A stretch of 64,000 bases of DNA from a virus: positions 1-64,000 of the IMG/VR virus record IMGVR_UViG_3300023174_000096. One strand, written 5' to 3'. The first letter of the stretch is position 1. Every line of letters starts with the position of its first letter. The notes below the pieces were generated by a model that saw nothing but the letters and a program-made list of their open reading frames with translations, searched no databases and was not told where the DNA came from. The translations under genes were made by a program, and so were the position numbers. Positions 6,680 to 38,700 of this stretch are shown one piece after another.

Positions 6680-6723
6680 GCGATTCTTGGTTACAGAGGG
6701 CCACCCGTCTCCGTGGTGTGAGC

Positions 6724-7393: not shown

Positions 7394-7650
7394 TCACCAC
7401 TCCCCGTAGCTGCGACGGCCCCCGCCCTTGCCGTCGCACTCGTCGCAGTAGTGCGGGGAGCACCCCGGGTAGCCGCAGGGGTGCCAGCCGGGGCGGGGGC
7501 GGGGGACTTGGGGGCCGTCCCGCCGACGAGGGCGCGGGCGGCGTCCGCCTTGTCGGCGGGTACAAGCCAGCCCTTCTGGGCGGCGTCCCAGCGCCCGCCG
7601 AGGGCCTTGATCCGAATCACGGTCGCCAGAGCATAGGTGCCCGGATCTCC
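7394..7650 (-). pseudogene. Frameshifted remnant of a DUF5710-like (IKALGGRWD...W) protein with a Cys-rich tail
   Basis: GTYALATVIRIKALGGRWDAAQKGWLVP in one frame, GWHPCGYPGCSPHYCDECDG in another; no clean start. Confidence 0.45.
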
Positions 7651-7718
7651 CGGGCTGGGTTAGTGGTTGGAGAGAGGGTGAACCGCCCGACCGGGATAGC
7701 CCGGTCGGGCGGTGCGTG

Positions 7719-8237: not shown

Positions 8238-8239
8238 GT

Positions 8240-11821: not shown

Positions 11822-12002
11822 CCCGGTCGCCGTCCGTGGCGGGGGCTACCAGAACGACCTCCGAACCTCCCCAAGGAGGGCACACAAGCTGGCCACCAGC
11901 GTGGTGGTGACGCTGGGGTTCCGTACCCGCCTGACGTGCAGGTGCCCCCGGTCATGCCCACCGAGAACCTTGGGCTTCGCGGCGGGGCGTGCGTCGAGGT
12001 GA
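11811..12002 (+). CDS. Diverged CLec variable-region (VR) mini-protein
   Basis: AVRGGGY...TLGFRTRL motif. Confidence 0.5.
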   Translation: MLSSPVAVRGGGYQNDLRTSPRRAHKLATSVVVTLGFRTRLTCRCPRSCPPRTLGFAAGRASR

Positions 12003-12109
12003 AAGCCGTATGGTTGTCCACCCATAACGCCCTGTCCTCGCGGTCAGACCGATGCGCTCAAATCTACGGCTTCCGAACCCACCTGCCAGTAAGGCAACCC
12101 CGAACGTGA
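11954..12109 (+). CDS. Diverged CLec VR mini-protein (51 aa)
   Basis: MPTENLGLRGGAC...IYGFRTHLPVRQPRT; stop overlaps next GTG. Confidence 0.55.
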   Translation: MPTENLGLRGGACVEVKAVWLSTHNALSSRSDRCAQIYGFRTHLPVRQPRT

Positions 12110-12276
12110 AGCCCACCACCAAGCCCTCCGACCTCCGCGTGTACCGCGGCGGCAGTTGGTACGGCCACGCACCGTCGTGGGTGCGCGCCGCGTCTCGCGA
12201 CACGCTCGGGCCTGCGGACCGTTACAGCAACATCGGGTTTCGGTGCGCCCTTCGGGGAAGGGAACCCCGAACGTGA
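12106..12276 (+). CDS. CLec/FGE VR mini-protein, family 1 (56 aa)
   Basis: LRVYRGGSWYGHAPSWVRAASRDTLGPADRYSNIGFRCAL. Confidence 0.8.
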   Translation: MKPTTKPSDLRVYRGGSWYGHAPSWVRAASRDTLGPADRYSNIGFRCALRGREPRT

Positions 12277-14306: not shown

Positions 14307-14498
14307 TCACTTCTTGGCGGGCGGGACGGTGGTGAAGTCACTGGCCGTGAAGTGTGACAGAGGTGACGGTGGCGGTGGTTCTTTCTTGTTGATGAAGCAC
14401 ACGGAGCACATGGTGGCTCGGGAGTGCAGGGCGAGTCGTCCGCACCGTTCGCACCGGGGATATTCCTCGGGTTCGTAGGCTGGGGGTCGTGTTGTCAT
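14307..14498 (-). CDS. Small Zn-finger protein
   Basis: CERC...CSVC; ATGA overlap with ATP-grasp gene. Confidence 0.55.
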   Translation of the reverse strand: MTTRPPAYEPEEYPRCERCGRLALHSRATMCSVCFINKKEPPPPSPLSHFTASDFTTVPPAKK

Positions 14499-15235
14499 CG
14501 GAAGGTCTTGTGTTCTGCGTAGTGGGCGTAGCTCTTCCACGCTGCGATAAGTAGCGCACCGGGGTTGGTGACCATGTCGAAGCGTCCTGCGGTGAGCACG
14601 CTGTTGACTTCGACGACGGCGGGGTGCCCTTTGTGGCACCATCCCACGTCGAGGACGTAGGCTCCGGGGGCTTCGGCCTTCCACGCCCGGTACGCTTTCT
14701 CGGCGTAGGCACGGAGTTCTGGGTTGTGGTCGGGGTCTTTACGGACGCCCCGGGGTCCGATGAAGAACCGTTCCTCGCGGCTGAAGTGCAGGTACTCTTG
14801 GGCGAGGACCGGGTAGTCGTCTGGGAACAGGCAGACGCTAGTGGCGGCGTACAGGAAACTCCTCGCGTGGAACGCCTTGGCTTCGTTGAGGGGCTTCACG
14901 AAGATTTTCTGTGTGCTACGGGGGTGTGAGCGTTCCCGTACCCGCAGTACGCCCAGCGTGGTTTTCCACACCCTTCGGTGGGCGAGGGGTTTGAGGGCCG
15001 TGGGGATGTCCACGTTGGGGTAGGGGGTCTTGAAGGTCCATTCGTAGATGGCCTTCACGGCTCCCGCGTCTCCTTTCACGGGGGTGTCGGGGGTGACGGT
15101 GCGGGGGAGTTTGTTACGGGCGAAGGGGATCACCCGGTAGCCTCGGCGGGTGAGGTCTGCTGCTACGAGGGCGCACGAGTTTGAGAGGTAGCCTTTCGTC
15201 GCGGTGCCCGCTTGTATGTACGCGGTGGGTGTCAT
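14495..15235 (-). CDS. ATP-grasp protein, R2K/DUF4343-like
   Basis: IFVKP..K.F, LAQEYL.F.REERFFI, AYVLDVG..VVEVN. Confidence 0.75.
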   Translation of the reverse strand: MTPTAYIQAGTATKGYLSNSCALVAADLTRRGYRVIPFARNKLPRTVTPDTPVKGDAGAVKAIYEWTFKTPYPNVDIPTALKPLAHRRVWKTTLGVLRVRERSHPRSTQKIFVKPLNEAKAFHARSFLYAATSVCLFPDDYPVLAQEYLHFSREERFFIGPRGVRKDPDHNPELRAYAEKAYRAWKAEAPGAYVLDVGWCHKGHPAVVEVNSVLTAGRFDMVTNPGALLIAAWKSYAHYAEHKTFR

Positions 15236-15333
15236 GGCGGGGTGTTACGCCCCGAAGGCCAGTACTTCGTATGTTTGGCGGGCTTGGGTGCCGGGGGCGG
15301 GCGTGCGCGGTAGGGGTTGCCCGTGGCGCGCTG

Positions 15334-15759
15334 TCAGTTGAGCAGGGAGGAGGGGTCGTTCTTGGGGAGGCTGCTGGCGGCGCGGATGAGGGCGTCCATG
15401 TCTGCCTCGGGTGCGTCGGGGGTGTCGTCCTCGTTGATCTCGTAGCCGTCTTCGTCTCGGCCCCACAGGGCGTAGGGGGACTCGTTGGCGTTGAGGAGGA
15501 ACAGGGCCGAGAGCTCCCCATCGGGTTCTTCCACCACGGCGACGGTGAACAGCGGGTGGCGGTGGACGGCGCGGACCTCCTCGGGCATCGAGCATTGGGA
15601 GAGCACCAGTCGCTTGCGGTCTGGGAGGTGGCACCAGCAGTCCCGGCTGACGTAGATGCGCTCTGGGAGGGTGGGGGCGAGTTTCCGGGCGAGGGTGATG
15701 AGGCGTTGCGCCCCGGTGAAGGCGAGGGCTGCGAGGAGGGTGCGAGTGTTGATCTTCAT
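15334..15759 (-). CDS. Hypothetical protein
   Basis: GGGCGTAA motif 9 nt upstream of ATG. Confidence 0.65.
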   Translation of the reverse strand: MKINTRTLLAALAFTGAQRLITLARKLAPTLPERIYVSRDCWCHLPDRKRLVLSQCSMPEEVRAVHRHPLFTVAVVEEPDGELSALFLLNANESPYALWGRDEDGYEINEDDTPDAPEADMDALIRAASSLPKNDPSSLLN

Positions 15760-15787
15760 GGGGGGTTGTTACGCCCGTGGCGGGGGG

Positions 15788-16711
15788 TCAGAAACCGAAC
15801 AGGTCGTCGAGGGAGGTGACGGTGTTGGGTTGGACGCAGTGGGGTGACAACCACAGACGCTCGCGGGATTTGTTCTCGTTGTCCCCGCGTCGGTTGTGCC
15901 CGCCGTGCCCTTCCCATGACACTTCCCGCCAGCCTTCGGGCATTGGGCGGTCGTCGTACCCGGCCAGCACGATGCGGACGGTGGGTGTGGCGTTGGCGAC
16001 GGCCCACTCGACCACCTTGTCGAACACGTCGGGGTCGTCGTCCTCCCCGTAGCACTTGCCGTCTCTCCCTTCGTGCGTGTAGGGGGGGTCGAGGAAGATG
16101 CCCGTGGGCAGTTTCCCGTGGAAGTTGTTGACGACGGAGTGTGATAGCGCCCGTGTGTAGTCCCCGCAGAGCACCCGCACCCGTCGCAGTCGGGCTTGGA
16201 GGTCTCGCATGTGTTGGTGGACATCCCGCGTCATCGCGTGGACGCCCTTGCCGTGTAGCCCTCCCGCACACATGGGCTTGCATCGTCGGGGAATGTCCAC
16301 GCACCACGCGCCCGTGAAGAAAGAGCTCATGCCCCACACCCACCACCCGGCGATCTTGGGGTCGCACCAATCGGGGTCTGCTTCCAGTTGGGCTCGGAGT
16401 TGGTCCCGGCGTTCCCACAGCCATCGGTGTCGGGCGTGGAGGTCGTTTTCCAGCACCGGGTGGTCCGCGTGGCGTGCGACGGCGTCCGGGTCTTGGGACA
16501 CGGCCCGCCAGAAGTTCGCGACGTACCCGTTGGCGTCGTTGATCGTCTCGGTCCCCTTGAACGGTGCGGGGCGAGCCAGCAGCACGGCGGCGCTGCCCGC
16601 GAACGGCTCGACGTAGTTGGTGACGTTGCCGAGGGCTTCCCACACGGTGTCGGCCACCATTGACTTGCCTCCCATGTAGGGGAACGGGGCTTTGAGGTCG
16701 GAGGTGCTCAT
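15788..16711 (-). CDS. DNA adenine methyltransferase (Dam/D12 class)
   Basis: PFPYMGGKS, YVEPFAGSAAV, FLDPPY. Confidence 0.9.
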   Translation of the reverse strand: MSTSDLKAPFPYMGGKSMVADTVWEALGNVTNYVEPFAGSAAVLLARPAPFKGTETINDANGYVANFWRAVSQDPDAVARHADHPVLENDLHARHRWLWERRDQLRAQLEADPDWCDPKIAGWWVWGMSSFFTGAWCVDIPRRCKPMCAGGLHGKGVHAMTRDVHQHMRDLQARLRRVRVLCGDYTRALSHSVVNNFHGKLPTGIFLDPPYTHEGRDGKCYGEDDDPDVFDKVVEWAVANATPTVRIVLAGYDDRPMPEGWREVSWEGHGGHNRRGDNENKSRERLWLSPHCVQPNTVTSLDDLFGF

Positions 16712-16723
16712 GGCGGTGGGGGG

Positions 16724-17797
16724 TCAGAAGCCGAACAGGTCGTCGATGGACGTTGGTGCGGTGGTGTGTCGGAGGCAGTGGGGTGAGAGCCACAGACGTT
16801 CCCGGTGCTGTTGGCTCCCCTTGTGGGATTGATTTGCCATGCCGCCCTTGAGGAATCCCTCTCGGTACCACTCGACGGCGGTCCAGCCTTGGGTTTCGAG
16901 TTCTTGGTGCTCCGTGTCGTAGCCCGCCAAGACGATTCGGTACTTGGGGTTGTCCCCGTTGACCTTGCACCACCGCCTCACGTCGCTGGCGATGGTGCCG
17001 CTGTCCGAAGCATAAAGATCTCCCGTGCGCACATCATCCGCATACGGGGGATCGAGGAAAACGCCCGCGTGTCCGCCTTGTCGCACCGGCAGGGTCTGCA
17101 ACGCGCCGCTGGTACACGCGCGCGTCCAGTCCCCATTGAGCACGCGGACGTGCCGCAGCCTCGCGGACAGGAACCGCAGCCAACGGGTGAGCTCTGGCAT
17201 CGTCATCGGGTGGTACTCGGGCTCCGCTCCCACACCCTCCTCGCGCAGTTGCGGGCGGTTCATCCCTTGTCCGTTGCCGACAAGGTGCGGGATTTGACGT
17301 GCCACACCACCGTTCTTCGACCGCTTCGTGATGCGCCCATCGTCACCGACGACCCACGGCCCATCGCCGCTGCACCACCCGCTTCCGATCCAGCAGGACT
17401 GCCCCCACGCCCACCAGCCCGCCATCTTGGCGTCGTAGAAGTCGGGGTCGCCCATGAGGTGTTCGAGTTGTCGCTCGCTGCGCCACTTCACGAGGGCGAG
17501 GTGACGGGCGTGCATATCGGCCTCGCACACGGGCCACGAGGCAGCTTCGGCCACCGCATCGGGGTCGCGGATGATGGCCCTCCATGCGTTGCAGAGCAGC
17601 CCGTCCATGTCGTTGACGGTCTCGCTGTGGTAGGGACGGTTCGCGGTGTGCGGGCGACGTAGCAACACGGCGAGGGAGCCCGCGAAGGGTTCGACGTAGT
17701 GCTCAACGTCACCCAGCGCGGTCCAGACGTGTTCCGCCGCGTCGGCTTTGCCGCCGAACCACGGCCACGGGGTCTTGTAGAGGTTGGTGAGTGTCAC
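16724..17797 (-). CDS. DNA adenine methyltransferase (Dam/D12 class), paralogue
   Basis: PWPWFGGKA, YVEPFAGSLAV, FLDPPY. Confidence 0.9.
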   Translation of the reverse strand: MTLTNLYKTPWPWFGGKADAAEHVWTALGDVEHYVEPFAGSLAVLLRRPHTANRPYHSETVNDMDGLLCNAWRAIIRDPDAVAEAASWPVCEADMHARHLALVKWRSERQLEHLMGDPDFYDAKMAGWWAWGQSCWIGSGWCSGDGPWVVGDDGRITKRSKNGGVARQIPHLVGNGQGMNRPQLREEGVGAEPEYHPMTMPELTRWLRFLSARLRHVRVLNGDWTRACTSGALQTLPVRQGGHAGVFLDPPYADDVRTGDLYASDSGTIASDVRRWCKVNGDNPKYRIVLAGYDTEHQELETQGWTAVEWYREGFLKGGMANQSHKGSQQHRERLWLSPHCLRHTTAPTSIDDLFGF

Positions 17798-20624: not shown

Positions 20625-21131
20625 ATGGACCCCCGTATCGCCCTCGCCCAAGAGTACGACGCCCTCGCGGAGATCACCGACCAGTATTACCGCGAACACG
20701 CCACCCGCCAAGAGCTCTGGCAGCAGGAAGCTCGCGTCAACCGTGCCCTCGCCGCCGTGTACCGGCACGAAGCCGAGAGTGACCTTCTCCTCCGCGCCGT
20801 CCGCGCCCTCGCGGGGCTCGACCCGGACGCCCTCAAGTCCATCACGCCCGAAGCGATGCACCGGGTGCTGGGTAGGCGGGGATGGACGAAGACCGGGGAG
20901 ATTCCGTGGGCTGGCGATCCGTCTCGCGTCGGGTTCCACACTTACGATCACCCCACGGCCCTCGGCTGCGGCGGCGACCCGATGGGGGTGATCCCGGCGG
21001 TGCTGGTGCCCGAAGGCCCGGATGCCCATGATTACCCGCGTCGGGTGATGGAGTGGGCCACGGACGTAGCGGCCCGACACGGTGACGTGGCCCCTGCGGA
21101 GGTGCTCGCGGAGGCGTGGGCGAAGCCGTGA
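20625..21131 (+). CDS. Hypothetical protein
   Basis: GGGCGTAA 8 nt upstream. Confidence 0.7.
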   Translation: MDPRIALAQEYDALAEITDQYYREHATRQELWQQEARVNRALAAVYRHEAESDLLLRAVRALAGLDPDALKSITPEAMHRVLGRRGWTKTGEIPWAGDPSRVGFHTYDHPTALGCGGDPMGVIPAVLVPEGPDAHDYPRRVMEWATDVAARHGDVAPAEVLAEAWAKP

Positions 21132-21289
21132 AGTCGTCGGTCAAAGCCTTTCGCGTCCGCCGCAGTAGCCCTTGGCTCTACGACGATCCGTCGTGGGTGC
21201 TCGCGTCTGCTCGCCATTCGCGCGTGCCCTCGGGATGTAACAGTGCGCTGGGTTTTCGCACGCACCTACCGGGAAAGATGCCGCGATGA
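21128..21289 (+). CDS. CLec VR mini-protein (53 aa)
   Basis: FRVRRSSPWLYDDPSWVLASAR...ALGFRTHL. Confidence 0.7.
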   Translation: MKSSVKAFRVRRSSPWLYDDPSWVLASARHSRVPSGCNSALGFRTHLPGKMPR

Positions 21290-21465
21290 ACCCCACCCCC
21301 AAGCAACCCAAGCCTGACTACCTCTACCGAGGGTTTCGCGGCGGGGCGTGGGACTACTCGACCGCCGCCAACGTGCGCGCGGCCTATCTCTTCGGCAGCA
21401 CGCCGACGCTCCGTGACTACCTCATCGGGTTTCGCTGCGCGCTGCGGGTAAGGGAACCCCGGTGA
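21286..21465 (+). CDS. CLec VR mini-protein, family 2 (59 aa)
   Basis: RGFRGGAWDYSTAANVRAAYLFGSTPTLRDYLIGFRCAL. Confidence 0.8.
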   Translation: MNPTPKQPKPDYLYRGFRGGAWDYSTAANVRAAYLFGSTPTLRDYLIGFRCALRVREPR

Positions 21466-21845
21466 GGCCCAGCAAGAAGCTCCTCGCGGAGAAAATTCGT
21501 GAAGCCTTGTCGGGCTACCTCGGCACGGTGAAAGACTCGACGACCATTCAGTCTGTCCGAGACCAAGTGCTATCGGCGTTGCCGACGAACTTCTCGGGGT
21601 CATTGGACGTGTCGCAGGACCCACTCGACCCCACCAAGATCAACGTGGTGGCGCACGTCCCGTTGACCTACGTCCAAGTGACATACATCGCAGAGCCTTC
21701 CGGGGACCACCACTACGTCGGCGGGTGTTGGCTCTCTGACGACCCCAGCAGGGTTCGCCCCTGCGCCGGGAGCAGGGTGGGTCCGACGAATCACACGGTC
21801 TCGGTGGGCTTCCGAGTGTGCCTACGGGGGAGGATGTTGCGATGA
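21462..21845 (+). CDS. Unknown ~80-aa domain fused to a diverged CLec VR cassette
   Basis: C-terminal YVGGCWLSDDPSRVR...SVGFRVCLRGR. Confidence 0.65.
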   Translation: MRPSKKLLAEKIREALSGYLGTVKDSTTIQSVRDQVLSALPTNFSGSLDVSQDPLDPTKINVVAHVPLTYVQVTYIAEPSGDHHYVGGCWLSDDPSRVRPCAGSRVGPTNHTVSVGFRVCLRGRMLR

Positions 21846-22030
21846 ACCCCACCTCCAAGCCCACCGCCGACAACCTTCCCCGCGTGTTTCGCGGCGGGTC
21901 GTGGAACATCACGTCCGCCACCTTCGTGCGCGCGGCGTTTCGCGACGACTGCACGCCGACGATCCGTGTCATCAACCTCGGGTTTCGCTGCGTCCTTCGG
22001 GGAAGGGAACCCTTGAAGGTGACCCCGTGA
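21842..22030 (+). CDS. CLec VR mini-protein, family 2 (62 aa)
   Basis: RVFRGGSWNITSATFVRAAFRDDCTPTIRVINLGFRCVL. Confidence 0.8.
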   Translation: MNPTSKPTADNLPRVFRGGSWNITSATFVRAAFRDDCTPTIRVINLGFRCVLRGREPLKVTP

Positions 22031-22257
22031 GCTTCGGCACCGGGAAGACAAGTTCTCGGCTGACCGAGATCGTCCTGCACACAACGGCGGATGCCCGCGC
22101 GAGGGCGGGGACCCTTCAGTACAAGGGTGGAAGCTGGTCGAACCGGGAACAAAGCTGGATGCAGATCACCCAGCGCCACGGCAACCCCGCGTACTACAGC
22201 AGCGTGGGACTGAGCTTCCGGGTTCACCTACCGGGACGGGCACCCCGTGGCGATTGA
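22027..22257 (+). CDS. Diverged CLec VR mini-protein (76 aa)
   Basis: YKGGSWSNREQSW...VGLSFRVHLPGRAPR. Confidence 0.6.
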   Translation: MSFGTGKTSSRLTEIVLHTTADARARAGTLQYKGGSWSNREQSWMQITQRHGNPAYYSSVGLSFRVHLPGRAPRGD

Positions 22258-24497: not shown

Positions 24498-24850
24498 TGG
24501 GCACGAGCAAGTTTGAGGGCCACGCCCTGTGCGTGGCCGACTACGAGGAGAACTACATCTACGGGCTCGGGACCGACGAGACCGTGATGAAGGGCATCAG
24601 CGCCTTCGTCCTCGACGCAGGGGGTTCAACCGTCCGTGCGTCGGCCCCTATGGCGTTTGAGGACGAGGTGGACGAGGACGGCTACTTCAAGGACGTGAGG
24701 GACGAGTACCGCGAACTCACCGCCCGCAAGGCCCTCCCGGTGATGCGGGTGAAGGTGACCGTGGAAGTAGAGCCCCTGTCAGACGAAGAGTCCGCGAGGG
24801 TGTGGGAAGATCACTGCGCCAAGCTGCGGGCCAAGCGGGGTGAACCGTGA
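24497..24850 (+). CDS. Hypothetical protein
   Basis: Coupled ORF. Confidence 0.65.
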   Translation: MGTSKFEGHALCVADYEENYIYGLGTDETVMKGISAFVLDAGGSTVRASAPMAFEDEVDEDGYFKDVRDEYRELTARKALPVMRVKVTVEVEPLSDEESARVWEDHCAKLRAKRGEP

Positions 24851-25290
24851 CCCTGCGACGGATTCACTCCCCCCAAGAAGAACTGCTGGAACAAGCCCTG
24901 CGGGACGACGCCCGTCACTTGGACGAGATCATCGCCATCAGTGAAGCCCTCGGAGCGCCCGTGGACTCCTCGGGACCGGAGATCTTGGAGATCGCACGGG
25001 AGTTGGTACGCCGTGTCGAGGCGATGGATTCCTTGCTGCGCCAGCACCTCCCCAAGTGCGGCGAGTGCGGCGCTATCGCCACCCGGACGTACATCCACAC
25101 GGTGGGACAGCGGTGTTATGCGTGCGACGACGAGGGGTGCATCACGGAGCACTTCTGCGCGCAGTGTCACCAAGTCGCCCATGACACGGGCGAGCCCTGC
25201 CCCTTCTGCGGTTCCACCGAGTACACTCCCCGCGTAGAGGCCGACCTCACGAATCTACCCTTCGCCAACGTGCGACGTGCGACGTTCTGA
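24847..25290 (+). CDS. Zn-finger hypothetical protein
   Basis: CGEC, CAQC, CPFC. Confidence 0.65.
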   Translation: MTLRRIHSPQEELLEQALRDDARHLDEIIAISEALGAPVDSSGPEILEIARELVRRVEAMDSLLRQHLPKCGECGAIATRTYIHTVGQRCYACDDEGCITEHFCAQCHQVAHDTGEPCPFCGSTEYTPRVEADLTNLPFANVRRATF

Positions 25291-25339
25291 CGGGGGCGAT
25301 GTTGGAAGACCCCGAAGACCTGTAGGGCGTAACGGGGGT

Positions 25340-25546
25340 ATGGCAAGATCACGAAAGACCCCCGCTCCCTACGAAACAAACCCGACCGACACCCTCTACC
25401 GCGTCTACCGCGGCGGCTGTTGGTACGACAACGCACCGTCGTGGGTGCGCGCCGCGTCTCGCGGCGCGAACGTGCCTGCGTACCGTGACAACAACTTGGG
25501 GTTTCGGTGCGCGCGCGGGGGTTCCGAAAGGAAGGTGAAACCGTGA
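25340..25546 (+). CDS. CLec VR mini-protein, family 1 (68 aa)
   Basis: RVYRGGCWYDNAPSWVRAASRGANVPAYRDNNLGFRCAR; GGGCGTAA 7 nt upstream. Confidence 0.8.
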   Translation: MARSRKTPAPYETNPTDTLYRVYRGGCWYDNAPSWVRAASRGANVPAYRDNNLGFRCARGGSERKVKP

Positions 25547-25725
25547 GCAACCCCAAGACCGACATCCTCTACCGCGTCCTCCGCGGCGGCGGTTGGTACA
25601 TCCGCGAACCGTCGTGGGTGCGCGCGGCCATTCGCAGCACGAACGAGCCTGCGAACCGTGGCCTCAACTTGGGGTTTCGGTGCGCGCGCGGGGGTTCCGA
25701 AAAGAGGTCGGGGCGTAATACGGGC
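25543..25725 (+). CDS. CLec VR cassette, family 1; no stop, reads in frame into the FGE scaffold gene
   Basis: RVLRGGGWYIREPSWVRAAIRSTNEPANRGLNLGFRCAR. Confidence 0.7.
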
Positions 25726-26577
25726 ATGAAGATCGAACTGGCTTTGTACTCAACCCAAGAGCAACCGAAGTCCACCGCCCAGTGGGCGTGCGCCCGGTCC
25801 CCCCACTACCACTGGGAATCTGCCTCGCTGATTACCTCCCCCGACACGATCTGGGGATTCATGGACGAGGTGATGTCCGTGGACGCGGACGCGCGGGGGG
25901 ACACCGTAGCCGTTCGTTCTAGGTGGGAAGACCGCGAGTGGACCCAATACGTCCACCCGACCTACGGGGTCGTCCCCAAGCTCTTCGTGGACGAGGACGG
26001 CAAAGTGATCGAGGAATGGCCGACTCTTGAGGAGATCGGAGGCCCGTGGGTAGCGACGCACGTCCTGCCCGATGGGCACGGGATGCCCCTCTGCTACGTC
26101 CCCCCCACGGAGGGTTTCCAGATGGGAGACGCGATCTCTTCGACCAAAGATCGACGGGTCGTAGACGTTCTGGGCGGGTTCGTGGCCCTCACCCCCACCA
26201 CCATCGAGCAGTGGGCTTGGTATTGCGCGGCCACCGGGAAGCCGGTCCCCGAAGTCAACACCGAGAATCGCCACCACCCGGTGGTCGAGGTGGACTTTTG
26301 GCAGTCCCGCGACTTCGCAGAGTGGGCGGGTCTGGAGCTTCCCACGGAGGAACAGTGGGAGCACGCCGCGCGTGGGCGGGATGGGCGCAAGTTCCCGTGG
26401 GGCAACGAAGAACCGGGAGCCTACCCGGACCCGAAGTGTCACTGGTCTGGTGGCGACAGCGAGGGTGCCGATGGAGTCGCGCCCGTTTTTGAGCGTCCCG
26501 ATGGTGCCTCCCCCTACGGGTGCCTCGACATGAGCGGGAACGTCTGGGAGTGGTGCGACTCCCTGTACTACAGGTGA
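25726..26577 (+). CDS. FGE-sulfatase/CLec-fold protein truncated before the C-terminal variable region
   Basis: FQMG, HPVVEVDF, LPTEEQWEHAARG.DGRKFPWG, SPYGCLDMSGNVWEWC then stop; lacks RVxRGGSW...GFR. Confidence 0.85.
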   Translation: MKIELALYSTQEQPKSTAQWACARSPHYHWESASLITSPDTIWGFMDEVMSVDADARGDTVAVRSRWEDREWTQYVHPTYGVVPKLFVDEDGKVIEEWPTLEEIGGPWVATHVLPDGHGMPLCYVPPTEGFQMGDAISSTKDRRVVDVLGGFVALTPTTIEQWAWYCAATGKPVPEVNTENRHHPVVEVDFWQSRDFAEWAGLELPTEEQWEHAARGRDGRKFPWGNEEPGAYPDPKCHWSGGDSEGADGVAPVFERPDGASPYGCLDMSGNVWEWCDSLYYR

Positions 26578-26581
26578 AACC

Positions 26582-26761
26582 GTGAGTGATCCCAAGACCG
26601 CCGACACCCGTCTCCGCGTGTATCGCGGCGGGTCGTGGTGGAACAAGACCACCACCTATGTGCGTTTGGGGGTGAGCAGCGTTGACACGCCCACGAACCG
26701 TCTCTTCGACTTGGGGTTTCGTTGCGCGCTGCGGGGATGTGAGAGGAAGGTGAAACCGTGA
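26582..26761 (+). CDS. CLec VR mini-protein, family 2 (59 aa)
   Basis: RVYRGGSWWNKTTTYVRLGVSSVDTPTNRLFDLGFRCAL. Confidence 0.8.
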   Translation: MSDPKTADTRLRVYRGGSWWNKTTTYVRLGVSSVDTPTNRLFDLGFRCALRGCERKVKP

Positions 26762-26934
26762 GCAACCCCAAGACCGACACCCTCCTCCGCGTCTACCGCG
26801 GCGGTAGCTGGGACAACTTCGATCCGTCGTGGGTGCGCGTCGCGCTCCTTAGCTGGAGCGGGCCGACGTACCGGGACATCGACCTCGGTTTTCGGTGCGC
26901 GCGTGTGGGTTCCGAAAGGAAGGTGAAGCCGTGA
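26758..26934 (+). CDS. CLec VR mini-protein (58 aa)
   Basis: RVYRGGSWDNFDPSWVRVALLSWSGPTYRDIDLGFRCAR. Confidence 0.8.
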   Translation: MSNPKTDTLLRVYRGGSWDNFDPSWVRVALLSWSGPTYRDIDLGFRCARVGSERKVKP

Positions 26935-27107
26935 GCAACCCCAAGACCGACACCCGTCTCCGCGTCTTCCGCGGCGGTAGCTGGGGCTACCACGCACCGT
27001 CGTGGGTGCGCGCCGCGTCTCGCTACTCGCTCGTGCCTGCGAACCGTGACAACCTCTTGGGGTTTCGGTGCGCACGCGGGGGTTCCGAAAGGAAGGTGAA
27101 GCCGTGA
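26931..27107 (+). CDS. CLec VR mini-protein, family 1 (58 aa)
   Basis: RVFRGGSWGYHAPSWVRAASRYSLVPANRDNLLGFRCAR. Confidence 0.8.
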   Translation: MSNPKTDTRLRVFRGGSWGYHAPSWVRAASRYSLVPANRDNLLGFRCARGGSERKVKP

Positions 27108-27679
27108 GTGATCATTTCTGGACGTGCCCGTTGTGTGGCACTCCCTGTGAAAAGCTCTACAAGAACACAGACTTCTGGACGTGCCCGTACTGCCCCGCAT
27201 GGTCCGAACCCGGCGGCGGGAAGCGCATGGGACAGGTGTCTTCGTGGAGCCTCGCGGAGTGCCAACCGGGGGCGAAGAAGGTGATGGTCCCCGTGCGCGC
27301 GGGCACCGCTTGGCACTACGGCGACCACCTCGTGTGGCCCTTGGACGATTTCGTCCACGTCGGGCGGTCCCTTGAAGACGTGCTCGCCAAGGTCAAGAAG
27401 CGCACGGGCTCGGAGCCCCCACACCCCATGGTCGAGTACGTCCCGGCCCTCACCCTGCGGATCGGTGCCCTGTGCCGTAGGGGGCCGTCTCCCGCCCGGT
27501 ACGTCGGCGGCGGAAAAGCCTTGGCCGTGTCCGCACAGGACAGCGACCTCATGCTCGGAAATGCAAGCCCTCCCTCGGGCGGCGAAGATAATCTTCCCCT
27601 GCCCACCGCCCGTGAAGTTCTCCAACGGGCTGTGACACTGGCGACGGACGAAGAACTCGACGCACTTATCCAGAGGTGA
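27104..27679 (+). CDS. Hypothetical protein with N-terminal Zn ribbon
   Basis: WTCPLC...WTCPYC. Confidence 0.65.
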   Translation: MSDHFWTCPLCGTPCEKLYKNTDFWTCPYCPAWSEPGGGKRMGQVSSWSLAECQPGAKKVMVPVRAGTAWHYGDHLVWPLDDFVHVGRSLEDVLAKVKKRTGSEPPHPMVEYVPALTLRIGALCRRGPSPARYVGGGKALAVSAQDSDLMLGNASPPSGGEDNLPLPTAREVLQRAVTLATDEELDALIQR

Positions 27680-27942
27680 CTGCCATGACCCGTGAAGAAC
27701 TCGCTGAACGTGACCCCGACCTCCTGTTCGCAGACGGCTTCGACGAGGCGATCTTGGGCGTGGCCGAACGCTGCGGGAGCCCGCTGGTGGTCGTCTACGA
27801 CTACGCCAAGTGCTGCGAGATACTGGTGTCGCGCGACGGCATGAGCGACGACGAGGCCGTCGAATGGATGGAGTTCAACGTGGTGGGGGCCTACGCCGGG
27901 GACCGCACCCCGTGGTTCCTGCATGGGGCTCCAGAAATGTGA
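27676..27942 (+). CDS. Conserved phage hypothetical protein
   Basis: ADGFDEAILG..VVVYD..EAVEWMEFNVVGAY.G..TP. Confidence 0.75.
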   Translation: MTAMTREELAERDPDLLFADGFDEAILGVAERCGSPLVVVYDYAKCCEILVSRDGMSDDEAVEWMEFNVVGAYAGDRTPWFLHGAPEM

Positions 27943-28022
27943 ATGCGAAAAGCATTGACATTCTGTTTGCGGGGTGGCATAGATGTTTCCGCAACGTCCG
28001 CCGACTATCCCCCCCAAGGAGA

Positions 28023-28538
28023 ATGTCCATGTCTATCAACACACAATCCCTCGCAGAGATCCATCGTCAGGCCACCTCCCGTGTCGAGCAGCTTCGTGCT
28101 GACATCGAGGAGGCCCAGAAGCTCCTGAGCTCCTATGAGCAGGAGCTCACCCCCCTCCTCCAGATCATGAAGGTCACGGCCCCGCTGTCCCCGGAGCCCA
28201 AGGAGGAATCCCCGGTCCTGTCCCCCGCCGCACAGATGCGTGAGGCCGTGGAGGAAGTGCTGGAGACGGAAGGCCCTGCACAGGGCGTGGAGACGGTGAT
28301 CCCGTCCCGCCGTTACAGCCAGTACAAGCTAGCCCCCCGCTTCCGTCGCTTCCTCGACCGCTTCGGCAACAACGAGAAGGTCGAGCGTCGGGAGATCGCG
28401 GCGTGGTACCGCCGCGCCCTGAGCCCCGGCATGGCCGACAACTCCCTCTACGCGATGGTGAGCGAGATCACTCGCACGCTGGTCGCCAAGGGAATCCTCG
28501 CTCGTGAGGGCGAGGGCGTCTGGCGCATCGTCCGCTGA
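28023..28538 (+). CDS. Coiled-coil + winged-helix-like protein
   Basis: SD aagga; TTGACA at 27955-27960 upstream. Confidence 0.7.
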   Translation: MSMSINTQSLAEIHRQATSRVEQLRADIEEAQKLLSSYEQELTPLLQIMKVTAPLSPEPKEESPVLSPAAQMREAVEEVLETEGPAQGVETVIPSRRYSQYKLAPRFRRFLDRFGNNEKVERREIAAWYRRALSPGMADNSLYAMVSEITRTLVAKGILAREGEGVWRIVR

Positions 28539-29780: not shown

Positions 29781-32700
29781 ATGGGCAACTTCGACGGTCA
29801 GGTACTCCCGGGCGCACGCGCCTCGACCAGCAACGCCGACACCACGGGGGAGGTCTCCTCGGGCGTGTCCCGTGCGGTGTTCACTTCCACCACCCCGACG
29901 TACCCCACGGCGACGGCCACGGACATCAACGGTGCTCGGTACCGCGCCACGCTGAGTGAAAGCGGGCAGACCGTTGAGTATTTGCTCTGGGCGAACACCT
30001 CGGGACCGCTGACCGTCGCCCCCGGCACCGTATCCACCGATGGGACGGTCGCCATCCCTACGGGCACGCTCACGGTCGGCGCGTACAAAGACGGCACGTC
30101 ACGTCTGGTGGTCACCGACAACGGCGGGGCGAACATCGTCTCGGTCACCGCCCTTGAGTTCAAGCAGGGCGGGACGACTTTGTTCGTTACAGCCCCCGGT
30201 GGCTTCACGTTTGATTCCACGTCAGGCACGATCAGCCTCAACACCCTCGTGGCAAGCGCCTCGCGGGGGGACGCCTTCCGGGCGACGTACATTGTCGGCC
30301 CCGCGACCTTCAACTGGACGCGCAACGATCCCAGTGCGACGCGCTTCGGCTGGAACGCGGCGCACCGCAAGTGGGAGCCCTACAAGGGCGGGGCAGTCAA
30401 GGACCTCGGGAAGCTGCTGTCGTCGGCGGGCTCCCGGTACACCCTGTCGCCCATCCCCACCACCCCCGTGGACGACTACCTCCCGGGCACGAACACCGTG
30501 GGCGAGTACGCCATGCTGCGCCTTGGGAGCTCTCCCGACGAGGCTTCTTACCCCGTGGTGACGGGGGTTTCGTACAGCGGCGTGAAGGTCGTCACCGACG
30601 ACGTGGCGACCCCCAGCTACAACTTCAACTCCGTGTCCCCGGCCCTCGCGGGCGTGATGGGCAACAACTCGGGGAAGATCGTATGGAACCCGGCGTTCGT
30701 TGCCGACCACGAGGGTGAGACCCTCTGGTACTCCCCAAGGGATTTCTCGGCCAAGAACGACGGGGTCGTCGGCCCCTTGGTGGACGGTTCTTGGTACACC
30801 GCCCCCGTCCCCGGCCCCCTCGACCGACCCGTCCTCCGTGTTGGTCAACGGGCACCCCTCACCGTCGTCACGGTCAACAACGAGACTGACCTCGCGGCGC
30901 TCACGGTCCCCCTCGGGAGTGCAGGTGTGGCCCTGTCCACGGGGCGCGTGAAGCTCGACCCCAACACCCCGCTGAAGGCCAACCCTGCTTCGCTGCTGTT
31001 CGACCCGGCGTACCTCAATGCGAGCCTTCGGTACGACGGCATCGCCCTCAACCGCTACCCGCAGTCGGTCCAAGCTCCCGTCTCCCTCACCCCTTCGGGC
31101 AACGACTACCTCATTCCCGCCGCCGTGGGGCTTCCCGGCACGGGCATCTCGGGACTCCTTCGGGTGCCCGATGGGACGGGCAACACTCCCGACCCCGCCC
31201 TCCCGGTGACCTACCGACCCGGCGCGTCGGGCTTGGTGAACGCGCTCACCCCCGGCTTCGGTGACGCCTACCTGTACACGGACGCGGGGCGCATCGCGAA
31301 GCTCGTCCCGGTCAACCTCGACGCAGACCTCCCCACGGATCTCTTCTCCCTCCCGCTGGACACGGCGTATGTCTCCCTCGACACGGGGCGCGTGCGAGTG
31401 GGCTACGCCCTCGCTCAGACGCTCGTCGGCAAGACGGTGTACTTCGTCCAAGCTGTCGTGACGCCCGCGCAGTACCCGGACACGGCGAGGGTGTTCTCAA
31501 GGGTGCGGGACACCTTCACCTTCGCGGGCACGGAGACCTTCACCTTCTCGGTGGACGGGGTGACCTTCACCTTCTCCCCCGCTGCTGGCACCGACATCCC
31601 CGCTGCCACGGTGGCGACGGCCCTCAACGCCATCATGGGCGCAGGTGGCTTCGCTGGAGTTCTCTCTGGCTACCTGTACATCGCCGCCCCCAATGCGTCG
31701 GGCGCGGTGGCCGTGGGCTTCAACGAGACCGGGTGCCGGGTGATGGGCTTCCCGCCCGGGTGGCGGGTGAGCAACCCCAGCGCGGGCACCAAGGACGCCA
31801 CGGACCCCAACTGGCTCGCGGACACGGGCCTGTCCTTGGGTGTCTCCCGCAGCCCCAACAACTTGGACGGATCGCAGCCCGCCACGGACGTGCGCGCCAC
31901 CTACCGGGTGACCGACGTGTCCCTGTCCGAATCTCTCTCCTCCGTCCCCTACCAACTCCTCGATTATCCTCCGCGCGAGGACATCGCGGGCTACGACGAC
32001 GGTGAGTTCTTCGCCCTGTCCGGGGTGGCCTCACCGAACACGGTGCGACTGAGCACCACGGTCAAGCCGTGGAAGGACGCCGTCTACCAGTTCGATCAGT
32101 CCCGCTTCGCTTGGCTGTCCAACTTCAGCTTCGCGGGGCAGGTGCAGTCGCCCGTGTCGGCCATTGACCTTGGCAACGCGGGGGTAGTGCCCAGTACGTT
32201 CTACCCCGCGATGGACGGGTACCTCAAGGTGTCGGCCAAGGGCGGGGCGGCGCAGTCCCTCACCCTCGGGACAGATTTCTTGGTGCCAGAGGGGTCGGGC
32301 ACGGCGCTGCTCATCGACCGCGTCGGGCCAGAGGTTCTCAACGGCTACCGTGGGAGCGTCACGGGCTCCACCCTCACGGACACCTCGGTGGACTTCACCA
32401 CCATCGCCCAAGTGGGCGACCGACTGAAGGTGACCTCGGGAGGCTCCACAGGCTCGTACACCGTGGCATCGTCCACGCCCACCACCCTCACCGTGGTGAA
32501 CCCGTTCCCCGTGGCCTCGACCGGGAACGTGTCGTGGGAGCTCTACCGTGGGGTGAACTACACGGACCCCACCAAGATCGACCCCTCGATCCTCGCGGAC
32601 GCCGTGTTCACGGAGTTCAACCACCTCGGAGGCGAGACCTTCAAGGTGCGCCTGTACACGTCCCTCGGCACGGCGGGCGGCACGCTCGACACGGTGGACC

Positions 32701-35700
32701 TCCCCACGGCCACGTCGGGGAGGGTGCTGACCGTCCGCTTCGGGACGACCGGGACGACCACCTCGCAACTGACGGTGCTCACCAGCACCGAACTTGGGGC
32801 GCTTGCCAACGGATCGCTGTTCGTCCCGACCACCAACCCCCGGTTCGCCACGGACAAGTTCTCCGTAGTGGTAGGCACCAAGGTGTTCGTGAACGGGGTG
32901 GACCTCCTGCCCGTCGCGAGCTTTTCGCCCACGATCCCGGCGAACCAGATCGAGTACCTCACCACCACGGGCGAGCTTGGGTTTGGGGCCACCGTGGAGG
33001 CGGACTACCAATCCGCCACGGTGGTCTACCGACAGGAAGTCCTCAACCCCGCCAACATCTCCCAAGGCACGGGTGAGATCTCGCCCTTCACGGGTGCCGT
33101 GGGTCTCAGCGCCACGGACATCGCGGCCAACACAGGCAGCACCGTCTACCTCGTGGATCTCCAGACCTACGAGGAGGTGTTCCTCAACCCGATCCTCGGG
33201 TCGTTCACCCTCCAGCGCCCGGTGAAGGCGGGCCAACTCGTCGAGGTGACCTACACCCGCGCCAAGCCCGACTCGGGCCTTCCCTACCCCAACGCGACCA
33301 CCCCGGAGGTTGTAACCGAGTTCCTCCCGGTGTTCATCCGTCGCGAGACGGCCACGCGGGTCAACCAACAGGTCTACTCGTTCAACGCGGGTGGGCGCAC
33401 CGTGGACACCGACGTGGAGCCCTCGGTGCTCGTCAACGCCAACCTCGTGTCCTACGGGGTGCCCAAGGGCGTCAACTTCAACTTCTCTGACAACACCTTC
33501 ACGCTCGTGAAGTCCGTGCTCGACCCGGCCACGCGGGTGCTCATCACCTATGCCGTGTACGAGGCCACGGGCGGGGAGACCAGCTACACGGTCTCCAAGG
33601 GTCCGGTGTGGAGGCCCCCGTTCCAGTTGAGGGCGAACACCACGTCCTTCGACCTCAAGGGCAACCGAACCTCGGAGCTCACGTCGGGTCGGATTCTCCG
33701 TCTGGGCAACTACCTCACCTACATCCAGAGCGCCGCTTACAACGGCACGACGAAGACGAAGGTTGAGATCTACCCCGCCCCCACCCGGGACGTGGGCTCG
33801 CTCGCTCCTTCAGATCCGCCCGTCAATCTCGTTACAGATCGGGCGATCACTCCGTTGGTGAATGGAGTGGTGACCGTGGCTGCGAACGGTCTGCTCCCCA
33901 AGCTCACGGATGCCTATGGGCTCGCCAGCGTGCCCAAGTTCCAGCCCGTCACCAAGGGCCAGAACGTCGTGCGCTTTGAGGGTGACCTGACGAAGTACGC
34001 CGTCACGGGTCACGTCATCGAGCTCTTCGGGATTCCCTTCCTCGTCGCCAAGAGTGACTTCGTGGAGGGTGCCTTCACCGACATCACCCTCGGGTCACCC
34101 TCGCCCGTGCAGATGGTGTGGACCAGCACCCTGCCGACCAGCACCGTCCGCATCTCCGTGCGCCCGATCTACCCCGTGGGCGCGACCACCTTCATCGGCG
34201 CAGGGAGCCTCGTCGGCACCGAGCCCTACGAGGTCGTCCTGTGCGAGGGGACCGCGCCGGGTGTGACCCTCACGGAAGGTCGAGACTACCAAATCGACCA
34301 GACGGCGGGCACGCTCACACTTCTGGAGCCCCGACAGACGGGAATGCCCACGGGCGCGTCCCTGCGGTTCTACCGCACCGTGCAGGACACCCTCGCCCCG
34401 TTCGTCTTCCAAGGCGTGGTGCAGTACCCCCGGGTGGCGGCGAGCGCGGGCTTCATCGACCCGCCCAGCGAGGCCAACGGAAGGCTGGGGGCCACCCTCA
34501 CTGCCACCTACACCTTCGACTCGCCCGACAGCTTCTATGCCCGGTCGCTACCGCTTCCCTCGTACATCACGGAGACGGCGCGGAGCATCGTGCAAGGGGT
34601 CACCCGCAAAGCAGCGGGCACGAACCCCTCGGTGGGTGGGTTCCCCAAGAACTCCCCGTCCACGCAGGGCACGGCGGGCTTGGTGTCGGAGCGCCAAGAC
34701 TTGGTGTCCCGCGACCGGGTCACCCGTACTTTCCTTCGCTACTACAACGGGATCATCACCTCGTTTGAGCAGGTGCTTGAGACCATCAACGGCAACCCCG
34801 TGGGCGACCGCGATGGCAAGCTCCGTCTCTGGATGGGGATGGGGGACAAGTGGACGCCGCCGGGGTACGAGGACGGGATCACCGGGGCGGTCAATCCCCG
34901 CAACGTCTGGAACGAAGTCTGGAACGGCTTCCGCACCTCGCCCATCGCACTTCTCCCAAGCGACCCCATCGTCAGCCCCTACGGCGCGAGCCTCACGGGC
35001 GGGGCGCTCACCGGGACCGCCCTGTCCGCGAGCGCCCTCGGCCAGCTACAGGGCCTTCAGTACCGAGCCATCAAGAACGACGTGGACGACGTGGTGCTCA
35101 ACGGGCTCACGGGCACCACCGTGGCCCTCTCGGGCATCATCCGGTTCAAGGTCACCTCCTACGGGGTGTACCGGGGGCTGTCCCAGCCTTCGGCCTTCTC
35201 GCGGCTGTTCCCTGAGAGGGCCGACGCTTTCACCACCACCGACCCCGGCATTGGTTACAACCCGACCACGGGCTCCGTAGGGGTGTACAGCTACGGGAAG
35301 CTGGACCTCGACCTCTTCGGGAGTCCCCCGTCCATCTCGTTTCAGTCCACCACGGGGAACTCCATCGCGCGGTTGGCCAACCCCGTGCGCGGGAACATCA
35401 CGTCGGTGCTGGGCGCGACGGTCCAAGACCGCCTCGCGCGGGCGCGCATCCTCGCCTACTACCCCAACGGAGTCTCGGGTGTTCCGGGTGCCTCCGGGCG
35501 TCCTGTGTTTGTCGCCACGGTGCTCCCGCTCGACAAGTTCCCGCTGCTCCCCAACGGCCAGCCCGACACGGCGAAGCTCGTGGCAGGAGCGGGCATCTCG
35601 GGCCTGTACGACCTGACCAGCGGCGACCCCGACCTCCACACCCCGCCGTTCAACCCCGGCGACCAGCTAGCCCTCGGCACCCCCGATGGCACGGGGTACT

Positions 35701-38700
35701 CCGTGGGGTGGACGGGCGCGACGGTGACCGTCAACGGCAACCCGGTGTTCCCCGGCGTGTTCGTGGACTCGGTCATTCAAGGGTGTTACCTCACGGTCAA
35801 GAGCTACAGCGCCGCGAACAACTTCGTCCCGGTCCTCAACCCCGCGACCTTGGTGCGGCTCACCTCGGGCAACACGGGCACGACCCTCACGGCGGAACGC
35901 GGCGACACCCTCTTCGTGGTGCCCACCACCGGGGCCTTCACCGCCATCGCCTCGCCCCCCGCGTCGGCGCTCACCCCGACGCAACTCCAGACCTTCACGG
36001 CCAGCCTCCCGGGCTACCGGGTGGGGACCGACGTGGACCTCGACGGGCGCGCGGGCGCACTGGTGGACGCAACCCTGCCGTCGTTCAGCGACCCGACGAT
36101 CTTCGGGCTGAAAGAAATCACCGGGCAGCGACCGCCCTCGCCCCTCCGCAACCTCCAAGCGCGGGTGACCTTCCAGAACGGGGATGTCTCTCCGTCGAAC
36201 ATCCCCGCCCTGCGGGGGCTGTCCCGTCTCGACTCGGGCGACTACTCCCTGCCCTACTACCAGATCGGCCCCACGGAGCTTTCCGTGCTGGGGGACACCT
36301 TCCCGCTGGGCATCGCGGTCGTCGGCGCGGAATCCCCCAACCCGCCCGTGGGCAACCCTGCGCCCACCGGATTTGCCGACTACTCGGTCGAGGCCGTCTA
36401 CCCCGACGAGATCCTCGGCAACGGTGGCTTTGTCTCGGCCACCGACCCGACCAATCCTGCGACCCTCAAGGGGACGGTGGCGCTCAACCCCGGGTACGTC
36501 TCCCACACGGGCACGGGTGACGTGAAGCCCTACGACATCGTGTACGTCCAAGAAGGGACGGGCGGGGGATCGTTCCCTGCCGGGGCGACGGGCATCCGCA
36601 CCGTGGGCGCGGTGAACTACGCGGCGAACGTCATTGAACCGCCCCGGTTCGTGACCCGCACGTCTCCCGGTGCAGGGTCTTCGGTCCTCGTGGAGAACAT
36701 CCAAGCGTGGATTGACCCCTCGTACCTCACGGGCATGACGGTGAAGGAAGACACCAACGTCATCGCCCCCAACGTCCGCACGACCTTCACGCTCACGGGT
36801 GTCCCCACCTCGGAGATGGTGTTCGACAACGGCACGGGCGGTGGGGTGCTGCCGACACCCGTGGGCGGGTTCAACGACTACTTCACGGTGGGCAACAAGC
36901 CCAACAAGATCCGGCTGAAGCTCACCAAGAACTCGACTGGGAATCTCGTGACGGCTTCCAGCGTGGTGCTGGAACTCACCTCTCAGAACCCCAACATCAC
37001 CCTGTGCGGGTTCAGCGTATCGGGAGACAACGGCACAACCCCCCAAGGCGGCACCGCGTACTTCCTCACCCAGCAGATCGTGGTGGATACCGGGGCTCCC
37101 TTCTTCAACTTCCCTGCCTTCGGCACCCCCACCACACCCGCACCGGGGGTGACCGAGATCGGGCCGATGAACGTCGGCATCGATGCTGACTCGGGGAACT
37201 CAGTATCGGGTGGGACGGAGACCCTGTACGTCGGTGACGACCGCCTCACCCTGTACGGCCCCATCGACACCCGCACGGCACGGGCGCGAGGGGCGACCAC
37301 CCCGGGGGGCACCTCCATCGAGTGCCGCCTCACCACCCGTGGCTTTGAGGCGGGCATCTTCGACTCGACCTTGGGAATCACATCGGCCTTCTCGACGCTG
37401 AACGAGATCACAGAAGTGAACGGCGGCACGGCCCTCACCTTCGCCCCCCGTGCGGGTATCACCCCCTACGGGGTGGGCACGTTCACAGCCCCCGGCGTCG
37501 GCACCCTCAAGGTGATGGCCTACGAGGGGCACGGGAACACCCCGATCAACGGGACGGACGTGACCTACAGCGCCGCCCCCTCGTCTCGCCAAGACGAGAG
37601 CGGCCCGATCCTGCTGACGGACGCCCTCTCCGACCGTGTGGACAACCCCCCGTATACGTCACTGGTCAACTTCGCGCCGCGCATCGTGGACAGGTTCGTG
37701 GTGGACACCGCAGCGGTGACGCGCGGGCTGATGTCCCGGGTCCTCCCGGGGGATATCGTCACCGCCAAGAACTCCAGCCTTTCCTACCCGCTGCCAAGGG
37801 CCAATACCAAGGCGGGCACGCACCTCGTCCGCGCCGTGCTGGTCCCTACACTGGGGTTCACCTACGAGACCCGCGAGACCTTCACCACCCCGGACACCAA
37901 CGGTGCCTACGGTGACGGCTGGATGCCCTTCACCTTTCCCACGGTGACGGGGTTCAACCTCGGGACGCTCACCCTCGCCGTGTCGGACATCGCCCAGCTA
38001 CCTGCGATCAGCGGGTGGCTCGATGCCCCGGTGACCCAGACACACGTCTTCCCGGCCACGGGGAGGGTGTATGTGATCGCGAACGAATCGGGGCTGAACA
38101 GCACCGTTACGGCGGTGTTTCAAGACTCCGTGGTGAGCGCCGACTACACCAGCTTCGACCCTTCGACCAAGAAGTTCTCGGGGCTGGCGAACTTCCAAGA
38201 CGCGCTGGGGGCGATCCTCACCGCCGCGCAGTTCAACAACATTGTCGCGGCGGGCATGAAGGTCTCTGGCTTCACCCTCCTCCCGATGGCCCCCCACAGC
38301 GACGCCATCCCCGCGAACCTTCCGGGGTATACCAGCGTCGCCGCCCCCATCTCAGTGTTTGGCATCCGTCAACTGCGCGTGTCCCGCGACGTGAGCGGTG
38401 TTACCTACACATGGAACGCCGACGTTTCGGGTGACCTGACGGGACCGGGCTCGACCGTATCCGTGTACCAGCGGTTGAAGGTGAGTAGCGCGTCGTTCGT
38501 GACCTCCCTCGACCTCGCCGTGTACGACGAAGTGCCCGGTGGGATCGAGATCGACCTCACCACCCCGCAGTGGGAGAGCCTCCACAAGCCCGTGGGCGCA
38601 CCCTTCGTGCCCACGGGCACGCAGTGCATCCTCCCGGGTGACCGCTGGGCGATTGACTACTCGGGCGCAGCGGGCATCTACGTCGAGCCGTCCTTCCCAC

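Follow-up and report, generated by a model that had tools for sequence, protein, structure and literature searches.

A putative split C-type-lectin-fold binder with many DGR-type variable tips in a huge freshwater phage

Known variable proteins and the locus under study

The variable proteins of diversity-generating retroelements (DGRs) make up the natural system of hypermutation that is known best apart from vertebrate immunity, and their RxxRGGxW..GFRC end carries the ligand-binding variable region. In TvpA of Treponema denticola (2Y3C), TaqVP of Thermus aquaticus (5VF4) and Mtd of the Bordetella phage BPP-1, the scaffold and the variable region belong to one polypeptide, there are one or few variable regions, and a template repeat and a reverse transcriptase are found nearby. 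To our knowledge, scaffold and variable region form a single chain in all DGR targets described. Here we describe a locus with a scaffold of the same fold family in the first 64 kb (hereafter the window) of the 105.5-kb IMG/VR virus record IMGVR_UViG_3300023174_000096. It consists of a 283-residue gene (the scaffold) and a set of short mini-genes (the cassettes), whose variable region is, as in the known proteins, made up of the last ~40 residues (RGGxW..GFRC) and bears the NNC codon signature. In contrast to the known proteins, the fold is cut after the NVWEW motif, the variable piece is a separate gene of ~58 amino acids present in 11 or more copies, and neither a reverse transcriptase nor a template was found in the phage records searched. 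The source is a huge freshwater phage; the CheckV completeness of the 105.5-kb record (24%) implies a genome of roughly 440 kb, and the stretch is present in freshwater and lake metagenomes from 14 studies.

In the pilE/pilS system of Neisseria and the vlsE system of Borrelia, one constant expression unit is accompanied by numerous variable cassettes that serve its exposed part; they are silent and are used by DNA recombination, whereas each cassette of the window has a ribosome-binding site and a start codon of its own and would work as a protein. Among phages, the invertible S/S' segments of Mu and P1 and the T4 gp37 fiber with its gp38 adhesin combine a constant proximal part with an exchangeable distal host-range part, sometimes a separate polypeptide. 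These tips, however, are two alternatives obtained by inversion, or a folded adhesin domain, whereas the present locus has a dozen hypermutable pieces that belong to one fold. In T. denticola and in Thiohalocapsa PB-PSB1 (PMC10907252), DGRs have been described that diversify several or remote targets in trans, with many variable regions far from the reverse transcriptase. The locus described here shares with these the distance of its variable regions from any reverse transcriptase, which implies action in trans, but the bacterial targets are full-length proteins encoded in the reverse transcriptase's own genome, whereas the mini-genes lie in a phage in which none was found. The fold of TvpA and TaqVP, adenine mutagenesis by DGRs and remote targets in trans (PMC10907252) are thus known parts, and the split architecture is what is new: no published description of a scaffold with separate mini-genes was found in the literature searched. 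Such loci would have been missed by large surveys because small and reverse-transcriptase-remote targets were discarded; the largest one excluded targets under 300 nt as well as those remote from the reverse transcriptase (PMC8144416).

We consider it probable, though well short of certain, that the locus encodes a naturally split binder with the C-type-lectin fold of the formylglycine-generating enzyme (FGE) type, in which one selected scaffold can take, in trans, any one of a dozen DGR-type tips that are translated separately and complete it. At least 11 separate mini-genes encode the ~50 residues (RxxRGGxW..GFRC) that the end of the scaffold lacks. Each of them would be translated by itself, mostly through coupled re-initiation, and the resulting peptide would insert its GFRC strand beside the NVWEW strand of the scaffold, completing the fold in trans. 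One genome would in this way provide one scaffold with many alternative, hypermutable binding tips, and the tips would be rewritten by a reverse transcriptase and a template repeat located beyond the DNA that was sampled, be it in the rest of the phage or in its host.

A truncated scaffold and separately encoded tips

The first-pass annotation, made from the letters alone, had claimed that the scaffold gene stops exactly where an RVxRGGSW..GFR segment should follow, and this is borne out by profile comparison. The Pfam family FGE-sulfatase (PF03781) covers the protein at profile positions 66-194 of 255 only (E 1.1e-25), and the core is cut 7 residues after NVWEW, the C-terminus reading ..NVWEWCDSLYYR before the TGA at 26575-26577. 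The three open reading frames (ORFs) immediately downstream (58-59 amino acids) match the same family at positions ~204-255 only (E 3e-4 to 1.5e-6), so that the domain of ~255 positions is not found whole in one polypeptide but is covered jointly by scaffold and mini-genes on separate ORFs. There is a single copy of the scaffold gene in the 105.5-kb record. The predicted fold resembles solved members of the FGE/C-type-lectin group: the best Foldseek match of the scaffold model is the FGE 5NYY (E 4e-3), and VIA-align of residues 106-280 gave Z scores of 5.7 with PvdO, 5.5 with TvpA (2Y3C) and 4.4 with TaqVP (5VF4). The weakness of these scores comes from the C-terminal third of the scaffold, which is disordered when the protein is modelled alone (residues 205-283, pLDDT 28-50). 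The N-terminal domain (residues 1-117) is confidently modelled and had no structural match above Z 3.6, no Atlas lead and no PHROG match. The sole PHROG match of the protein, phrog_18508 ("kinase"), lies at residues 177-281 in the FGE core.

The stop codon of the scaffold is real. Logan contigs of four studies (runs X1, X2, X5 and X6) were aligned to positions 25300-27200, and one of 1101 bp, found in both X1 and X2, spans 25673-26773 with zero differences, while shorter contigs span the junction in X5 and X6. No insertion or deletion was reported anywhere in the contigs of the four studies, including 26565-26585, which speaks strongly against the assembly indel that had been offered as an alternative explanation of the truncation. 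Only one between-sample difference was seen in the 852 nt of the scaffold. A contig joint from 26556 to 26614 in run X1, one side of which has only 23 letters at 85% likeness, was treated as a repeat or another organism. Neither a sigma-70-like promoter nor a plus-strand terminator was found in 24700-28100.

Homologues share the truncation. The closest proteins, P0008 (100% identical), P0009 (91%), P0010 (62%) and P0011 (57%), have ..SLYYR as their last residues or 0-5 residues before the end. Another 13 aligned proteins (263-292 amino acids, 42-53% identical over the whole alignment), drawn from about 33 protein-search matches of that length, end in ..NVWEWTSTVHK/R, the only other endings among them being a C, M or T right after NVWEW and tails of ..TIHR or ..TYHK. 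All these proteins stop 5-12 residues past NVWEW. In the protein search no match that shares the N-terminal domain of the scaffold is full length, and full-length FGE proteins align to the core only. Among close relatives the dN/dS of the scaffold is 0.25-0.39, pointing to purifying selection. Since the homologues share the truncation and have such ratios, the truncated gene is conserved and selected as such; it is not an error, nor is it a pseudogene.

The arrangement of genes recurs as well. A scaffold ~50% identical to that of the window, with directly tandem cassettes behind it, occurs in three huge-phage records, L013 (a 266-kb contig), L014 (167 kb) and L016 (56 kb), the genomes of which contain 23, 15 and 5 cassettes, respectively, in several clusters. 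In these three the start of the first cassette (ATG or GTG) overlaps the scaffold stop (AAATGA, TAGTGA and AAGTGA) and lies in frame -1, while in the window the first cassette starts 4 nt past the stop in frame +1, as had been calculated correctly in the first place. To judge from these junctions, the conserved feature is termination followed by a new start, and not a frame relation or a slippery site. A metagenome scan with the family alignment was dominated by ordinary FGE proteins, and the only true family member recovered was L099, a 5.5-kb contig. At 4526-4700 of this contig, beside a scaffold closely related to that of L014, the frame past the stop resembles a cassette head joined to a cassette tail, as though a deletion had removed the cores. 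A related huge phage that has no cassette arrays encodes, elsewhere in its genome at L299 6617-8446 (at ~182.6 kb of G003:C1, minus strand), an ordinary protein with a full-length FGE domain (610-residue frame).

A profile search of the 105.5-kb record found 11 clear cassettes along with three weak ones, a copy number far beyond chance. Without exception they lie on the plus strand, from 11.8 to 27.1 kb. The clear copies start at 12106, 21128, 21286, 21714, 21842, 22117, 25340, 25543, 26582, 26758 and 26931 (Table 1). Three cassettes downstream and two upstream of the scaffold, each of the downstream ones with its own Shine-Dalgarno-like site and GTG start, had been recognized from the letters, and at least six more are found elsewhere in the record. 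The downstream copies make up a 173-bp tandem array (score 501 in Tandem Repeats Finder) in which AGGTGA or GGAAGGTGA stands 5-10 nt ahead of each GTG start and the stop of a cassette and the start of the following one overlap as GTGA. The same junction element precedes the next gene, at 27104, which suggests a recombination or expansion point of the array. Cassettes can also be attached to other modules, since the 127-residue ORF at 21462-21845 joins one of them to an unrelated N-terminal domain of ~80 amino acids that has no Pfam match. Finally, cassettes also spread by plain duplication, because two of them located 55 kb apart in one genome (L014 8851-9015 and L093 799-954) have identical variable residues.

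Complex prediction, which had been proposed as a check, agrees with completion of the fold by a separate peptide. With the scaffold supplied as a 17-row alignment and the 26582 peptide as a 25-row alignment, the predicted complex scored 0.90 in three runs, the best of three controls reaching 0.00. Of 80 solved complexes 58 scored this high, as did 2 of 110 mismatched pairs. The runs share at least 98% of the contacts, the partner has a pLDDT of 86, and the tightest predicted contacts are those of peptide residues 43-49 (..GFRC..) with scaffold residues 273-276 (NVWE) and 153-158, as in the intact FGE fold. Such a prediction is a measure of likeness to solved structures and not of binding. The idea of a constant scaffold with interchangeable variable peptides acting in trans has therefore gained from the conserved truncation, the recurrent arrangement, the purifying selection and the predicted complex; in this reading the peptides would be translated and would bind.

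The variable positions of the cassettes

What the first-pass annotation overlooked is that the cassettes themselves are DGR-type variable regions (and that one of the upstream copies is fused in frame to the scaffold). When the codons of 11 cassettes from four phages were tabulated, the variable ones had the form NNC, the third C being invariant (columns 9, 10, 22, 24, 28 and 30-32), or else NGT, GNA, NCG or GNG. Nearly all the non-variable codons are identical, even where a rare silent codon is used (TCT, CCT, TTT, AGT), in phages with scaffolds of only ~50% identity. The cassette at 26582 belongs to a second, more diverged family that retains the NNC pattern.

A pattern scan of genome contigs gave chance matches in G+C-rich genomes, and the only true relative among the matches listed was L211, located in a 12.2-Mb Myxococcota metagenome-assembled genome (MAG; G005:C307) that has 8 reverse transcriptase matches. 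L211 is a canonical DGR, with a full-length FGE-type target ending in ..GFRCARGVM, an AAC-rich inverted template repeat and an adjoining reverse transcriptase. When 21 distinct phage cassette cores were compared with its template, 23 of the 25 template adenines fell on variable columns (Fisher p 2.5e-10), and 65 of the 71 constant columns (92%) were identical to the template. As the other 6 constant columns differ, L211 must be a relative of the template and not the template itself. The residues specified by the NNC codons of these 21 cores are limited to N, D, Y, S, G, L, F, H, I, C, R and V. At the 3' end the cassettes have the 16 nt CGGTGCGCGCGCGGGG, which equal the variable-region side of the L211 homing end and differ from its template side. 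Hairpins in the sequences downstream of the cassettes fold no better than those of shuffled sequences.

Variation between samples follows the same pattern. A 174-bp contig of run X6 aligned to the cassette at 26758 has 24 differences; of the 21 that were listed, 20 affect the first or second position of codons in variable columns, and the remaining one brings back the consensus Arg codon of column 21. Apart from this last one, the listed differences coincide with the variable positions of the codon tables, where AAC in a template would give NNC. Variant letters were seen in mini-gene 3 in runs X1, X2 and X5. P0008, whose scaffold is identical to that of the window, has a fused cassette with other variable residues. 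Judged by their sequence, the cassettes are DGR-type variable regions. Two contigs of run X1 run at window position 26638 from the first cassette into AAC AAC ACG TCC GCC ACC GAC.., an asparagine-rich family-2 variant that is closer to the expected look of a family-2 template.

Weighing the explanations

Several observations count against a split binder completed in trans. The high score of the complex may reflect likeness to solved full-length FGE-fold structures, which would be expected of the two halves of a split fold. The relative L015 has just a weak cassette of 43 amino acids located 200 nt downstream of its scaffold, and the scaffold of L099, a close relative, has no adjacent cassette. 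Open cassette frames are weak evidence of translation, as DGR templates avoid stop codons by design. In the window phage one cassette is fused in frame to the N-terminus of the scaffold and might fill the site in cis, and some of the contigs aligned to cassettes may derive from paralogous copies rather than from the same locus. Lastly, no reverse transcriptase (probed with PF00078 and with the protein of a DGR reverse transcriptase), no Avd (PF05635) and no all-adenine template copy were found in five related phage records (G000-G004), which are fragments that overlap partly, total ~794 kb including the record of the window and are 13-59% complete each according to CheckV.

Template-specific patterns were also absent from IMG/VR, and of 401 genomes from the phylum of the Myxococcota MAG, this MAG alone contained them. 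No cognate template repeat that equals the variable region at all non-adenine sites was thus seen in G000-G004 or in IMG/VR, and the five phage records have no reverse transcriptase (often accompanied by Avd in DGRs) in the same genome. The writer of the variation would sit either in phage DNA beyond the sampled part or outside the phage. It is conceivable, though on the whole doubtful, that the phage lineage itself lacks both reverse transcriptase and template, and that the hypermutation machinery of the host rewrites in trans, during infection, the tip mini-genes, whose variable-region-type homing end is identical to that of a bacterial (Myxococcota-type) DGR. The split, multi-tip binder would then be diversified by borrowed machinery.

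Among the other explanations, we regard as unlikely that the cassettes are an untranslated relic or archive, i.e., off-target or duplicated products of DGR retrohoming, or silent recombination donors in the manner of pilS and vls, with a scaffold that works or decays alone. Several copies are diverged or "aged", the order of the cassettes varies between near-identical phages, plain duplication is evident from the identical variable residues of L014 8851 and L093 799, the design of DGRs would keep the frames open anyway, and the five phage records are devoid of the machinery. Nevertheless, every clear copy has a Shine-Dalgarno-like site and a start codon at a fixed spacing together with the stop/start overlap, and both the scaffold stop and the start of the first cassette have been retained across three different sequence contexts. 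Decay also fits poorly with a scaffold that is under purifying selection and yet lacks strands found in every solved FGE fold, or with the structural PSW motif that most copies retain while the homologous template encodes PTR. The fused cassette provides a quite improbable alternative, in which the scaffold is a circularly permuted protein of 344 amino acids starting at GTG 25543, its own N-terminal cassette supplies the missing strands and the remaining mini-genes serve as spares or competitors. From 25543 to 26577 no stop interrupts the frame, the cassette at 25543 has a standard Shine-Dalgarno site and GTG whereas ATG 25726 has no such site at the normal spacing, and the in-frame fusion was also called in P0008 and P0009, with different variable residues. 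However, AlphaFold2 leaves the N-terminal cassette of the 344-residue fusion disordered and undocked (pLDDT 37-49), and a stop-free run of twelve linker codons is not significant. Moreover, the fusion is absent from P0010, P0011 and the entire TSTVHK clade, where the scaffold starts from its own Met and the cassettes are found downstream only.

We give a similarly low probability to peptides acting apart from the scaffold, by inserting into or mimicking host proteins of the FGE/lectin fold, as decoys, or by docking cargo domains; the first-pass annotation had likewise thought of free peptides that might poison or mimic host lectin receptors. Cassettes do outnumber scaffolds (11 to 1 here, and 23 in the L013 genome, G001), some clusters are distant from the scaffold and one cassette is joined to the unrelated 80-residue domain mentioned above. 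Still, the tightest genomic linkage, kept in distant phages, is to the truncated scaffold, and it is to this phage protein that the peptide is predicted to fit. Very improbable is a single gene made up of scaffold and first cassette, connected through an assembly indel or a programmed +1 frameshift at TAC AGG TGA, as the first-pass annotation had suggested as an alternative. A +1 shift would indeed give RVYRGGSW..GFRC with a plausible loop length, but the contigs of the four studies have no indel, all family members stop at the same point and the cassette has its own Shine-Dalgarno site and start. L013, L014 and L016, in which the stop is retained in three other contexts, would need a -1 shift over an overlapping stop and start instead of a +1 shift over a 4-nt gap; there is no common slippery heptamer, and one of them has TAG and then TGA. 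Programmed frameshifting was rejected because the relatives conserve termination and a new start, and not the frame or a slippery site.

If the binder is indeed split and completed in trans, a scaffold that takes any of a dozen separately encoded, hypermutable tips would give each genome many specificities at once rather than one, in what would be a natural protein-fragment-complementation library, and the design would be a ready-made template for engineered binder libraries. Tips written by a DGR of the host would represent a new kind of phage-host interaction.

Table 1. Features of the scaffold and cassette locus (window coordinates) and of the related bacterial DGR (coordinates of L211).
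Feature	Position	Strand	Description
Scaffold gene (283 aa)	25726..26577	+	N-terminal domain of unknown fold (~1-117) and truncated FGE/C-type-lectin core
Scaffold-to-cassette junction	26566..26584	+	AGGTGA (scaffold stop TGA 26575-26577 and Shine-Dalgarno-like site), AACC, GTG start 26582, +1 frame
Mini-gene 1 (59 aa)	26582..26761	+	Diverged "family 2" putative tip peptide RVYRGGSW..GFRCA..KVKP; Pfam positions 209-254
Mini-gene 2 (58 aa)	26758..26934	+	"Family 1" putative tip peptide; GTGA stop/start overlap at both ends
Mini-gene 3 (58 aa)	26931..27107	+	"Family 1" putative tip peptide; Pfam positions 208-255, E 1.5e-6
Upstream mini-gene (68 aa, ATG start)	25340..25546	+	Pfam positions 204-255, E 1.3e-7
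Upstream cassette	25543..25725	+	Usual Shine-Dalgarno site and GTG, no stop; in frame via a 12-residue linker into the scaffold ORF
Dispersed family-1 mini-gene	12106..12276	+	GTGA overlap with the stop of a weak, diverged copy at 11948-12109
Cluster of five further cassettes	21128..22257	+	21128-21289, 21286-21465, 21462-21845, 21842-22030, 22117-22257 (diverged)
Next gene (191 aa)	27104..27679	+	Same junction element as the cassettes (GGAAGGTGAAGCC GTG AGT GAT)
L211 DGR	6700-8000		Template 7333-7476 (inverted); reverse transcriptase about 7725-8354, minus strand

Neighbouring genes

The 191-residue protein that follows the array had no Pfam or PHROG match; it is Cys-rich, with CxxC..CxxC motifs near its N-terminus. 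Further along the window, the ORF of 3538 amino acids at 29781-40397 is without a family match. Two genes of D12-class adenine methyltransferases and an R2K ATP-grasp gene are located on the minus strand at 14495-17797, a dCTP-deaminase-like gene at 45718-46662 and a PhoH-like gene at 60064-61398.

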